A stretch of 54,491 nucleotides of DNA from positions 1 through 54,491 of the forward strand of contig NW_026933053.1 of the NCBI RefSeq assembly GCF_032062105.1. The letters run 5' to 3'. Shown one piece after another: positions 26,801 to 35,800 of the stretch (position 1 is the stretch's first letter; each line of letters begins with the position of its first letter). A program made the position numbers. The DNA is from Saccostrea cucullata (lineage: Eukaryota).

Positions 26801-29800
26801 ATTCCAAAAGCTTAATGTCAAACCCTGACAGAACTAATCTGTAGATCTTTTGACTTACGCTGCTTCGGACCTCCTCCATCTGCGCACTCTTCTCTCCGAG
26901 CTCGCGCCGCGTCTGTTCGTACATCGTCTTGTACTTCTCCTGTACAATCTTACTCTCCTCCACCGTCCTTTTAATCTCTTCCTCTAACTGGGCATATTCA
27001 TCTTGCAACCTAAAATTCAGTCATTCTAGCATTCAAAACCTACTTAAAATTTTAATTTGAAAACATTTATCATATTAATTTCATAATTTGTATATTTAAA
27101 TTATACAGGTTTTGACAATGGGACCTATATTTTTTTTAGGCATCTTTATCCTGAGAAAAAATCTGAGATTAACAACCTTTTGTGCTCCTCTTTTAGCTGC
27201 TCATAGTTGGTTCTGTGCATCTGGCTTCTCATTCGTTCATCAGCGAGCAGTTTTTGGAGCTCGGTCTCTGATGTCAGCTGAGGTAGCGACGAGGCCAGGT
27301 TTTGGACAACGGGAGGCAAGCCAGTGACATGACCAGTCCCCCCTAACATGCTTGTGCTGGCCATCTTCAGACTGTCAGTGTCCTGCATTAAATCCTACAG
27401 AAACAAAATTAATAAAAGAAAATGACTTTCAAATCCTAACGGTTGAATCTCAATATATAAATCAATCACATCATATATCTTCATGGAACCAAATGCTCCG
27501 AGAGCAAATCTGAAGAAAAAGGGGGAGGGTTGAAGTTTCATTGTGTATTTCCAATTTTGCTTTAAAAATTATGCAATTTTTTTTTACAGATAATCGTAAG
27601 TGCACATTCTATAGTTAATTCTTAAAAAACATTTTTTTTTTGGTGGTGGTGCTATCTGATCAACATGATGAATGATAATATATTTACTGAACACTGTCAG
27701 TGTCATGCTGTCATGCAAAGCAAGTTGAGACACATTTCCCGGCTTCACGCAATCCTTAAAATTCAGTCTGCATTTGCATGATGCAAAATACTCATACAGA
27801 CTAGTGTAATACAAAGTTTAAAATATAAGGAATTATTCATAGACAAAAAAATAATTCACGTAAAGAATCACACAAACTATTTTACCTTCTTTCACATCTT
27901 TCTAAGTTTCTGTTCGAAATCACAACAAATACTAACGCATGCGCAATTGACCAAATACATTCTAATTTCTAAACCATTAACGGAATTTCTTCCGGGTTTT
28001 CCCAGTTTCTGTAAATGATTTCAATATTATTCTTACCTTGCTTTTAATGCCGTATATTTCATCCATTCTTCGTTTTTTATTTTCATTTAAATTAATAATA
28101 TCTGGCCTTTTTCTTTTGATAATGTCCATCCTCTCAATCAACATGTTATTTTAATTAACCGACCAGTTATAATTTCTTTTTAAACATGTTAAACATGTTA
28201 ATTAATATCTCCTGTGGCCAAAACATGTGTGGTCATGACTTAGTTGTTTTAATTAAGCTACTGGAACGAAATTCATGACATTCTTTTAATTAATCTTTTA
28301 ATTATTTGTTTATAACTAAAACAGCAATATATAGTCGTTGCGAAAATAATTTTAATTAATGCGCCGCCGGTCGTACGTTTATTTTCCTTTTATTAAAAAA
28401 ATGAATATTGAACCTACTATATAACAATGTAAGAAATTACAATTAAAAAAAAATGTTTTGCAAGTGTATTTACAATACCACTACAAGAATTGATACTAGA
28501 AGTTTAAAAGAACGATTGAATAACTCATTTAATCTAGATCTTCAGTTACACAGTTTTTGTCATCAAATAAATTATTCATAATTTCTACTGAAGACAGGGT
28601 GACACGATAGCCGGGCCTTCCTTTGAATTTTCCGTCATCTTCTTATCTTGAATCAATTGATTTTTTTCTGTCATGAAAACTTCTTAGAAATTCGATCAAG
28701 AACTTCTTTTACATATTTACTCAGCAAGCAATCTTCTCGCGTCTTTATCAGCCCAACTGGAAATTCCTTACTAGAAGGCCTAGCTGTGTGAAATCTTTAT
28801 CTTATAATTCACCAAGCCAACATTTTGTGCATATTGCTCATTCCTATTATATCACAGTTTCTATCCAATACGTGATTATCTTTGTCTGTTTGTCTGTCAT
28901 ATTTGTCCGTTTGTCTGTCAGAATAAAAACAAACGCGCTCTAATAAAACAACATGCGGACTCCCTAAGATGTAACAGACCCTCCCTTCATCTTGAGTTAT
29001 GGTTTGCTACATTACAAAGTTTATAACTTTGGGGGCGGGGATATCAGTGTGACATAACTTCTACAGATGAGGATTTTTGTGCTCGGTCGTCCGGGATGCG
29101 GCAAGTCAGACCTCGTCACCGCCATATTTGGACTGACGGGGCACGACAGTGGAACCCGGTGTGATAATGGCGTCAGTATCCATACGTGGAGTTTCTCTCC
29201 TAAAACAGGCAAGACATTTTGGAATTAAATAATTTTTGTTTTATCATATGGAATGTACCTATTGAATATCATTTTGTTTTATAAATATTGATATGGAATT
29301 TCTCTCCAGAAACATTTTGGAGTTTAATTATTTTTGTTTTATTCATATGGAATTTCTCCCTCAAAACAGACAAGGTATTTTGGAGTTTAATACTTTTTGT
29401 TTTATTCAAACGTGAAATTTTTCTTTCAAAACAGGCAAGACATTTTGAGTTTAATCATTCTTGTTTTATTTCAAGCTTTATTACAAATATATGTAAAAAT
29501 AAAATATATGTTTTTAGATGCTTGTATATTGTTCTTTCCTTAAATTCTCCTCGGATCATTTGTCATCTGGTCAGCGGTATAAATATAAACTTGTGATGAT
29601 GATGATTTTGCTACGAATTTGGACAATAATCATTGTCATCAACGTTATCATCTTCAACTTTCTGTATTTTTCAATCTGATTACAGACTGAGTATTTTTTC
29701 TACCGATGATTACGATTTTTGTCAATGACAGATACCAGGGTATTGTCGGGCGATGTTGAGGAAACAACGCCACCTGTCGAGATTTGGGAGTGGTCGGGAA

Positions 29801-32800: not shown

Positions 32801-35800
32801 AGACCTGAAGCTCTCAGCGCCATCTGGTGCGTGTTATCCTATCCACTAACGGCGGTAGAAAATATAAGACGCAACTGGGGGAATCTGGAATTGGACGTAT
32901 GAAAAAATGTCTATTTTTTTCTCTCCAAATTAATAGACTATTTGTTATATGAAAAAATTTAATTATAATTTTAAGGACACAAATCAAAATCAATCAAATT
33001 TATAATTATAACAAAAAATCAACCTTAAAATAATTTCAGAGGTTTTTTTAAACTACACGTATGTACATTATTTAATTTTAAATCGGAAATCAGTAAGCAA
33101 AATTCAGCATACTCGTAAATTGGACTAAATCAACTAAATCAACATTTTGGCCTTCGGCAAACACACATGTATTCAATTTGAAAATATCGATATCACCCCT
33201 TCAAATGCCTGAGAACTGATAAAGTGCAACATTTTGAAATTAAAACACGCGATACAATTGTTTCAGAGAAGTATCAGAGTGACAGATAGCTCCAGTACCA
33301 GCCCGCCCCCCGGGACCGAACCACGGGGTCAGGGTGTGTATTTACCCATCCATGACGTCTTCATTAGCCCTTCTGAAAACAGACAGCTGTATTTTCCTGT
33401 GAAAGGTAGGTTACATGTTATATAAAACCCGTGAAATAAGTTGAATTAATTTAAAATTGTGAGCTAGGAAACTTAATTTCCTTCTGCATGCTGCAAGAAT
33501 AATTTCGTAACGTTTTATATGTATTAGTATGTATATATTTACATGTTTCTGCTTTTGTCTTAAGGCCTGTTTGATTTTCATTTGTCATATAGTACATTTC
33601 AATTTAAGTTTTTCATGAACATGCTATTTTAGTTAGGCTTTGTTAATCAAATTACCCATTCCTGTGAATTACATTCAGCTAACAGGCACGTAGCATCGTT
33701 TTTGAAACTGGGGGGCCAACCTGAGAAATTTTTTTTTACTTACCTAAAAAAAAGTTGACAAGCAAAAAAAAAAAAGTAAATTAAAAATTGCCCAAACTCC
33801 AAAATCCTATTTCGTGGAGGGGGTGGGGGGGGGGGGTGGCTAACTTTTTTCAGGGCCAACTTCCTTTAACTTCCAATTTTTTCCTATATTTCCTTGCCAT
33901 GAATATACTGTGGTAAAAAGTGGGGGGGCCAACCGTCTTTTCAATGGACATTTTCTATACTAAAGGTAATGTTGGCGAAAAAAGTGGGGAGGCCAGGCCC
34001 CCTGCCCCTCCTCCCCCTGACTAATGCATAAAAAAGACCCCCCCCCCCCATTAAATTCGATCCATCCAGTTAGCTCGGTTTTTAGAACAAAATGATATTC
34101 TTTTTTATTTACAATCTACATGATCTAAGTAATATTAGGCGTCATATTGTTCAATGTTGATTACATAAGGACTCTGTAAACAAGTAATATAATATAAAGA
34201 ACGCCATTAAATATGTATAATGCTGAAAGTGATCTATACAATGTCTGTTTATAACGATGACAGACTGCGTAAGCAACACGCCAGCGGCAGGAGCAGAGTT
34301 AGGACCGTATTTGACCCTCACACTTTGTGGTCCAATGGAAGCCGAGATCATTGCGCCGCGTATTGATTTCTAAATCTGAAACAGAAACAATCCATTGTCC
34401 ATCTCATGCTGAGTTTCTATATACACTGTACACACTTTCTGGGAAATTCTCTGATATCTAATTTCTGAGTTAAGTAAGACCAATATTTTTATTTTATGTA
34501 ATTAAATATCAGATATATACCGGTAAATATATCTAGATACATGTATATGTATTACAAACTCATTTAATTGTTTTATGCTAAATGAATTATTATTTTGGTG
34601 AGATCCTGAATTTTTGTTTGAATTTTTCTTTAGACCTTCCCTCCAACTGCGATTATTTGGGATTTCTACAACATCTGACCACTCGGTACAAAGAGGTTAA
34701 ATCTGGAACTGTCCTAGAATCCAGTAAAATTCAAAACGGGAAAACTGTGCTGAAATCGGACTGGAAAAGAAAATGCCGTACAAAGGTTTTCTGTATATTT
34801 ATTTGTATACTGTATATTGTAAAATATGTACATGATGTAAGCTTCGGATGTTTCCCACAACAATAGACTTATAATTTTAGTTCATTTTAACAAGTTAGGC
34901 TACATTTTAACCATGTTTTGATTTGTTTTTTAAATGCTTTATCTAGTTTGTTTTTCTCTTACTATTTAGTATTTTTACTTTGTTCTTGTTGTTATTCTTG
35001 TATTAATCTTATAGAATTTCTTTTTTATACTACCACTCTGAAGAAGAGGTGGGCTGTATAAGGTACTTTTACCTTTGTGTGTTAGTTTTTTATTTCTTAC
35101 TAAATTCCCATCGCATTTTTCGCAAATTTTATTGGGCTACCGCAGAGGGAAGTCATCCACCAACCTTTTACAATTGACATTCTTATGCGTTTGATTTTGT
35201 TTTTTTACAAGTTAGGATTGTTTGGTACTTATTTATCCATTGTTTGAATCTGAGGTTCTTTTCAATGATTATGGTCTGTCCAACAAAACCAAATATGGCA
35301 ATAGATACCTTGGGATATTCAGGCTATCTAATAAATTTCACAATCTTATACCATTTTAAATTCTATGCGGAAAATAAAATCATACTTTAAATGATTACAT
35401 GTACATGTATATCCTAAATGTTACAGTTGGGGGCGAAACGTTTGTTTTGTGGAATACCACATTTTTCACACTGACCATTATTTTTAATTAAACTAACAAA
35501 TGGCAGATGATGTACAGGGAAATAGGTCTACACATCAAAGTAAAGCTTCATTAGACAAATAATTATATAGAGACAGACCCAGACTCTAAAAACGATCCTT
35601 TTACTGGAGAACAGGAGAGCAGAATAGTGAATAACAACATCCAACACCCGATATATACAGTCTCAAAATAATGGCTGCTAGGAATTAATGAAATCATAAG
35701 AACTTCGATATGTTTAGGTATGTATAAAGGAAACAGAATACCCTCTGACTTCCCTAAAATGTGAGTAATATAAAAGGGTAGTTCTATAATTTCAGGGGAG

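Follow-up and report, generated by a model that had tools for sequence, protein, structure and literature searches.

We analysed a stretch of 54,491 nucleotides from the oyster Saccostrea cucullata (NCBI RefSeq assembly GCF_032062105.1, contig NW_026933053.1, positions 1 to 54,491 of the forward strand; hereafter the window). Its plus strand carries a gene of 14 open exons, 29067-36842, whose product is identified, by sequence comparison and by modelling of an orthologue, as a Roc-COR (Roco) protein. A preliminary description of the window had proposed here a stand-alone Roc-COR protein with degenerate G2 and G3 motifs, and had ended the gene at 33405; that position closes exon 11 just ahead of its GT donor, and three further exons lead to the stop at 36842. 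The exon lengths total 2,283 bases, which is divisible by three and gives 760 codons and a stop; the phase is consistent through all 14 exons, and the window contains no N. All 13 introns end in an AG acceptor, and their donors are GT in 11 cases and GC in two (introns 1 and 3). The exon junctions were read from the window DNA on top of a tblastn mapping of the S. echinata orthologue (P0002, 751 amino acids), whose residues 1-751 are collinear with positions 29067-36839. Identity ranged from 53 to 87% in the 11 exon-level alignments, exons 3-5 being covered by a single alignment that runs through the introns, and where exons 10 and 11 meet the S. echinata model is one residue longer than the gene model of the window.

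The GC donors (29209-29210 and 30258-30259) give the model that best matches P0002. Alternative GT donors exist after 29175 or 29185 for exon 1 and after 30266 for exon 3 (adding three codons); they shift a few residues and affect no motif, and the retention of IHTW in orthologues favours the long form of exon 1. The boundary of this exon is uncertain because a tandem repeat copies its donor region. The exon-end and donor sequence (...AAAACAG followed by GCAAGA...) recurs two to three more times in intron 1, in copies that are 74% identical, one of them with GT in place of GC, and the repeat could create alternative donors. The public RefSeq protein of S. cucullata at this locus (LOC134237119, P0001, 225 amino acids), to which exon 7 is 100% identical, takes in only exons 6-8 (30970-32156), three of the 14: it starts from a Met within exon 6 and runs past the exon 8 donor into intron 8 to a stop.

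Whole-protein tests were run on P0002, and the assignment of Roc and COR rests on this orthologue. Pfam Roc (PF08477) matched its residues 2-125 with 37.5 bits against a cut-off of 27. Its best solved relatives were the Roc domain of the Parkinson's-disease protein LRRK2 (E 2.9e-6) and the C. tepidum Roco, and a profile of the family described below recovered LRRK2 Roc among solved structures at E 8.5e-18. As for COR, hhalign of four oyster sequences against seven bacterial Rocos (carrying Pfam Roc in 7/7, COR-B in 7/7 and COR-A in 6/7 cases) gave a probability of 97.1% and E 6.6e-11 over 406 columns, with a match collinear through Roc, COR-A and COR-B (query 2-524, template 319-738). An AlphaFold2 model of P0002, made with a 12-row alignment, had a mean predicted local distance difference test (pLDDT) score of 68.9 and a predicted template-modelling (pTM) score of 0.69, with low confidence at 596-668 and 697-751. 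Foldseek matched this model to LRRK1 (7e-17), LRRK2 (1e-14), the C. tepidum leucine-rich repeat (LRR)-Roc-COR and RocCOR structures (about 1e-13; RocCOR 3e-13) and the isolated COR domain 3dpt (3e-7). The query-normalised TM-scores of the fold matches were only 0.3-0.4; low values are expected here because the domain arrangement differs. In the Atlas, the neighbours of P0002 are Roc/COR-A clusters, mostly molluscan, and the nearest by structure is an MFHAS1 cluster (TM 0.57).

These results bear out the Roc-COR identity first proposed for the locus, and the structure prediction suggested at the time does return RocCOR folds. The profile searches suggested alongside it succeeded in part: Pfam recognises Roc in P0002 and misses COR-A and COR-B, the COR region being covered by hhalign. 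When the exons of the window were searched singly, Pfam gave no Roc or COR match in any of 11 exon frames (pieces of 24-82 residues) and, for exon 1, generic P-loop matches only, below cut-off; this null result is uninformative because the pieces are short. A complex prediction with two copies of the P0002 COR-B (345-572) scored 0.00; with the alignment unused and the partner fold uncertain, it is uninformative on dimerisation. Between G4 and the last Roc strand, P0002 has a two-helix insert (about 133-177, exons 4-5) that is missing from the bacterial Rocos in the alignment; a helical G4-G5 insert is common to the oyster Roc and its invertebrate family.

An exhaustive HMMER search with exon 7 retrieved 39 representatives at E <= 1e-3 among 1.84 billion. 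They include oyster proteins (S. echinata, Ostrea edulis, Crassostrea virginica and Magallana gigas), gastropod proteins (Haliotis, Batillaria, Littorina, Babylonia and Patella), and proteins of the sea stars Patiria and Asterias and of the hemichordate Ptychodera; all the named members are annotated as uncharacterised or hypothetical. Bulinus contributed a partial match (58% of the query) within a protein carrying unrelated Pfam families. The top match, P0003, was rejected as a repeat-driven false positive: it is an 867-residue tandem-repeat protein with 13 weak short matches and scattered unrelated Pfam names. In most members 20-35 residues precede Roc, and in two (P0019 and P0031) about 330 residues of LRR do so. 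A tree of 27 rows groups the four oyster sequences into one clade with a Shimodaira-Hasegawa-like approximate likelihood ratio test (SH-aLRT) support of 100. Its stem measures 1.57 changes per column, compared with a median of 0.39 for terminal branches; the clade is placed beside the long-branch P0038, a placement that may be a long-branch artefact. Relatives with canonical G motifs, such as the Haliotis and Patiria proteins, exist within the same family. Elsewhere in it, the P-loop of Patella caerulea (P0051) reads GDCEEKKS and its G3 WNLKY, P0023 has WNYSS at G3, and the Roc of P0038 is undetectable; since these three have degraded motifs of their own, Roc degeneration seems recurrent in the family.

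The oyster protein begins with Roc, with nothing before it, followed by COR-A and COR-B in tandem and by a tail some 190 residues long. Pfam found no LRR, ankyrin, kinase, WD40 or death family on P0002 or on the three tail exons, and none of the LRR, ankyrin, kinase or death modules was seen upstream in the window, in agreement with the preliminary description. That account of a stand-alone Roc-COR protein therefore stands as far as known modules go; it falls short in extent, the gene being 3.4 kb longer and the product having the additional tail. The tail is mostly predicted disordered or of low confidence in the P0002 model, with one long helix. It contains blocks conserved among oysters (DLPxxCDY[FL]GF, ITWIL, LVN.FV.EILRKG.AKY.ED and WSI...TS.HATN) and ends in S-K-x-C-x-I-L; in the window the last exon reads ...SKFCGIL before TAA, with Cys at the fourth position from the C-terminus. 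A C-x-x-x end is present in 16 of 22 family sequences, and the other six all break off short of the tail end, so that the CaaX box is found in 16/16 relatives whose sequence reaches the C-terminus. The CaaX rule calls for an aliphatic residue at a2, and Leu as X predicts geranylgeranylation. The family C-termini fit this rule, having Leu or Met at X and an aliphatic a2, which suggests that the oyster Roco is prenylated at its C-terminus and anchored to membranes.

In G proteins the Thr of switch I (G2) and the Asp of G3 hold Mg2+ and sense the gamma-phosphate. All three motifs that had been reported for the oyster gene are encoded on the plus strand as described: the intact P-loop GRPGCGKS, in agreement with the G1 pattern GxxxxGK[ST], the DNG of switch I in the same exon, and WEWSG in the second exon. 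The P-loop is kept in 4/4 oyster orthologues that include the N-terminus. Aligned to the Roc of LRRK2, the orthologue pairs its DNG Asp with the Thr of T-V-G and its WEWSG Glu with the Asp of WDFAG, and the family alignment, of 26 Roc domains from 27 sequences (P0038 having no detectable Roc), concurs for both motifs. Across these 26 domains the G2 residue is Thr in 22 (one within an ambiguous Thr run), Asp only in three oysters, and Asn in one (Patella); the first residue of G3 is Asp in 21, Glu only in the three oysters, and Asn in two. Asp at G2 with Glu at G3 also occurs in M. gigas and in the window, that is in 5/5 oyster sequences covering both positions, and G3 reads ExxG (WEWSG) in the window and in all four oyster orthologues that cover it. 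The orthologue alignment proposed as a check thus agrees with the replacements first read from the window.

The other nucleotide-binding motifs are less steady. G4, the guanine-specificity motif with the consensus [NT][KH]xD, reads SHKE(D) in the window and THNE, THCD, TQSY and TQCF in the other oysters, with no steady motif, and the SA pair that relatives have at G5 is DL or GL in oysters. Pairwise identity among the full-length oyster proteins P0002, P0042 and P0043 is 43-55% in Roc, 49-57% in COR-A, 43-53% in COR-B and 42-47% in the tail; by this measure Roc is as conserved as COR in oysters. MRIFVLGRPG.GKS and EIWEWSG are invariant in the three proteins. With the P-loop and EIWEWSG invariant and Roc conserved like COR, the G2 and G3 replacements appear as fixed features of a constrained domain and not as decay; as the alignments indicate, they are lineage-specific and fixed, and no sequencing quirk. 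Switch I varies greatly in length and composition among Roco proteins, and the DxxG region of G3 is their most conserved part, according to passages of PMC6337361, so that the change at G3 is more telling than that at G2.

Table 1. Exons and motifs of the S. cucullata Roco gene and other features of the window
Feature	Position	Strand	Content
Exon 1	29067-29208	+	Start codon, Roc strand beta1, P-loop, switch I with DNG, strand beta2 (SIHTW); GC donor after 29208
P-loop (G1)	29085-29108	+	GRPGCGKS
Switch I (G2)	29163-29171	+	DNG
Tandem repeat, 63-65 bp unit	29177-29470	+	Copy 1 comprises the 3' end of exon 1 with its donor region; further copies in intron 1
Exon 2	29732-29805	+	Variable acidic loop, strand beta3, G3/switch II, then RR
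Switch II (G3)	29785-29799	+	WEWSG
Exon 3	30129-30257	+	Remaining switch II and Roc core (IFRGIQSFFFTRSSLFLLC...TWLDIHSK); GC donor after 30257
Exon 4	30393-30535	+	Strand beta5, G4 position SHKE(D) (relatives T[HK]xD); helical insert of Roc begins
Exon 5	30692-30803	+	Helical insert ends; last Roc strand; G5 region (HVVDL...)
Exon 6	30970-31182	+	Last Roc helix; COR-A begins
Exon 7	31272-31517	+	COR-A core; most conserved block of the family (ICxDP...FW...PDPxxLV..LE...G.LRE.L.P.LWQ)
Exon 8	31920-32105	+	End of COR-A, linker to COR-B
Exon 9	32240-32422	+	First half of COR-B (P.L.WT..P..D...)
Exon 10	32726-32896	+	Second half of COR-B
Exon 11	33267-33405	+	Folded COR region ends; GT donor (GTAGGT), phase 1
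Exon 12	34634-34785	+	Tail; conserved DLPxxCDY[FL]GF block
Exon 13	35796-36050	+	Tail; conserved ITWIL block and long helix LVNGFVEEILRKGxAKYxED
Exon 14	36705-36842	+	Tail end; WSIxAVTS.HATN block; CaaX CGIL (36828-36839); stop TAA (36840-36842)
Exons of coiled-coil protein	18442-23837; 27146-27388	-	Head to head with the Roco gene; weak coiled-coil Pfam matches only
Open frame	42831-43265	+	Begins MGQRHSK...; EF-hand pairs (Pfam EF-hand_7 49.9 bits, EF-hand_6 52.4 bits)
Satellite arrays	19599-21461; 43694-46478; 48228-54186; 2411-3463		Units 35 bp x 53, 64 bp x 43, 16 bp arrays up to about 169 copies, 63 bp x 16

Elsewhere in the window, the minus strand carries exons of a coiled-coil protein that stands head to head with the Roco gene and was labelled CEP83 in the preliminary description; Pfam gave these exons only weak coiled-coil matches. 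The 5' end of this neighbour had been put about 1.1 kb from the Roc start; its closest coding ATG, at 27388, is 1,679 bp away from that of Roc, a gap that a non-coding 5' exon could shorten. An open frame with EF-hand pairs lies on the plus strand and looks like the first part of a gene that we take to be neuronal-calcium-sensor-like, with a start of the myristoylation type. Satellite arrays account for the strong GC and AT skews of the stretches that they occupy (Table 1).

Taken as a whole, the sequence features make it probable, if by no means certain, that the gene encodes a prenyl-anchored stand-alone RocCOR protein with an altered and probably hydrolysis-impaired nucleotide pocket. The CaaX cysteine would be geranylgeranylated, as the last residue is Leu, and would tether the protein to a membrane. 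To judge from solved Rocos, COR-B would mediate dimerisation, and the contact between switch II and COR-A would couple the Roc pocket to the oligomeric state. The Mg2+/gamma-phosphate residues seen to be replaced in the oyster lineage (Thr to Asp in switch I, Asp to Glu at G3) would have altered that pocket; the guanine-specifying Asp of G4 would no longer be constrained, with the P-loop and the rest of Roc still under constraint. Such a Roc may still bind a phosphate or nucleotide ligand, and from the replaced residues together with the retained P-loop no normal GTP-driven hydrolysis switch would be expected. The resulting protein would act as a membrane-anchored constitutive RocCOR scaffold, not as a timer. 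The term pseudo-GTPase, used in the preliminary description, we keep as a candidate label: the replacement of G2 and G3 within a G-domain fold would fit it, and the invariant P-loop and conserved Roc argue against a dead domain.

Several points weigh against this reading. Any loss of GTP binding or hydrolysis, like prenylation, is read from sequence and not from experiment or ligand modelling. The same is true of the 14-exon model, of which the public P0001 model covers three exons, and the whole-protein results come from P0002 and not from the spliced product of the window itself. In P0002, Pfam COR-A and COR-B had no match at E <= 1, and in related proteins the COR-B scores were sub-threshold (17.6-23.9 bits against a cut-off of 27). 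Three more points concern the nucleotide pocket, and they also favour the foremost alternative, a normally cycling Roco GTPase in which Glu at G3 still manages Mg2+ and the switch I role falls to a Ser/Thr nearby or to the Asp itself. Asp to Glu is a chemically conservative change, and Glu might still hold the Mg2+-bound water. At G4 the canonical THCD persists in Ostrea, and in the window SHKED places an Asp one position further on. Because switch I differs among Rocos (as stated in part of PMC6337361), the aligned Thr-to-Asp change may be less decisive than it would be in Ras.

A normal GTPase is also in keeping with the invariant P-loop and with a Roc as conserved as COR. However, the residue three before the G2 Asp is T, V, S, S and T in the five oysters, so that no alternative Thr or Ser is fixed there; the G4 of two oysters, TQSY and TQCF, has no acidic residue to read guanine; the SA pair of G5 is replaced; and Glu at G3 is found in none but the oysters among the Roc domains aligned, most of which have Asp. 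We therefore regard normal cycling as rather unlikely. A change of ligand, with the pocket turned to ATP, another nucleotide or a phosphate compound and its function kept, would explain why the P-loop is strictly retained while G4 drifts, and why the new residues at G2 and G3 stay constant instead of drifting, as if a new pocket had been selected. The drift of G4 has, however, produced no convergent new motif, and the same pattern is expected of a P-loop that is structural and independent of nucleotide; a new ligand is in our view improbable.

Less probable still is an incomplete N-terminus, with upstream exons adding an LRR or another module. The ATG at 29067 is indeed directly preceded by ...CTACAG, as noted in the preliminary description, and this acceptor-like AG could be used; the LRR stretch before Roc in P0019 and P0031, and the shorter extensions of other relatives, provide precedents. 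Against this, an in-frame TAA (29055-29057) lies nine bases upstream of the ATG, all four oyster models that include the P-loop begin with MRIFVLG, no LRR-like open frame was seen upstream of 29067 in the window, and tblastn of the LRR-bearing P0019 and P0031 against the window, including the 1.7 kb upstream, gave a best match of E = 6.2 outside the Roc-COR exons. Decay or lack of expression of the S. cucullata copy would account for the short public model reading through a donor, the two GC donors and the repeat-copied donor region of exon 1, but it is scarcely credible given 14/14 open exons in consistent phase, their resemblance to the S. echinata protein over its whole length, and the intact conserved blocks and CaaX box.

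The probable prenyl-anchored RocCOR protein can be compared with known Rocos. Its nearest architecture is that of the MFHAS1/MASL1-type proteins (group 1, LRR-Roc-COR), minus the LRR and plus a lipid-anchor tail: both have the Roc-COR tandem without a kinase, and MFHAS1 clusters, besides being the closest to P0002 by structure, are the nearest feature neighbours (0.95) of the LRR-bearing family member P0019. The oyster protein differs from MFHAS1 in lacking LRR and in having G2 and G3 replaced, and it has a CaaX tail of about 190 residues. For MFHAS1, GTP binding has been reported together with a very low GTPase activity (a passage of PMC6337361). In fold and sequence, the oyster Roc is nearest LRRK1 and LRRK2, which are the best fold matches of P0002, over about 600 columns, and its best solved Roc sequence relatives. 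G3 is followed by Arg or Lys, as in LRRK2 (WDFAGR), in contrast to the Gln of the 10 bacterial Rocos compared. Unlike LRRK1 and LRRK2, the oyster protein is devoid of ankyrin, LRR, kinase and WD40 modules, and has the T-to-D change at G2 and the D-to-E change at G3; its predicted membrane contact would be through its own prenyl group and not through Rab binding, whereas Rab29 brings LRRK2 to membranes (eLife 2022, PMC9576273, in the part consulted).

The prokaryotic Rocos of C. tepidum and M. barkeri are collinear with it through Roc, COR-A and COR-B (fold matches 6hlu, 3dpu, 3dpt and 4wnr), but carry N-terminal LRRs and the canonical T and DxxGQ, neither of which the oyster protein has. The kinase, ankyrin repeats and death domain of DAPK1 and group 3 Rocos, and the kinase C-terminal to COR of LRRK and group 2 Rocos, were not found on P0002 or the tail exons. 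Like the CaaX small GTPases (Ras, Rho and Rap), it combines a G domain with a C-terminal C-a-a-X preceded by basic or Ser residues; it is nevertheless not a small GTPase, as its G domain is at the far N-terminal end and COR separates it from the anchor, about 550 residues away. PseudoGTPases resemble the oyster Roc in having a G-domain fold with catalytic or Mg2+-binding motif residues replaced, and we take the closer analogy to be a G domain that binds nucleotide and hydrolyses it poorly. Class i pseudoGTPases, such as AAGAB, are described in part of PMC12490416 as being without nucleotide binding or G motifs, in contrast to the oyster Roc, in which G1 is intact and conserved. Fusions of Roc-COR to TIR or death domains have already been noted in molluscs (a passage of the Aplysia immunome report, PMC9334734), and a variant Roco in an oyster is therefore unsurprising in itself. 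A literature search of open-access text, without subscription journals or supplements, turned up neither a prenylated Roco nor a Roco pseudoGTPase.

In the public annotation of S. cucullata the gene is truncated to three of its 14 exons. More broadly, and only tentatively, the sequences may represent an undescribed Roco subfamily of marine invertebrates, made of RocCOR with or without LRR and having its own prenyl anchor. Oysters would have lost the LRRs and turned Roc into a P-loop-retaining pseudo-switch (Thr to Asp, Asp to Glu, and a relaxed guanine motif), and lineages of the Patella, P0023 and P0038 type would have degraded Roc independently. If true, this would be the first natural series of Roco pseudoGTPases and the first lipid-anchored Roco. 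The conserved CaaX box suggests a Roco that reaches membranes directly, in contrast to the Rab29-recruited LRRK2. The way in which Roco proteins, LRRK2 among them, are controlled by the Roc GTPase cycle remains a matter of debate (as discussed in part of PMC6337361). The oyster proteins offer a natural experiment on this question: COR and the surroundings of switch II are conserved, two Mg2+/gamma-phosphate residues have been exchanged and are fixed across oyster genera, and canonical relatives are available for comparison.

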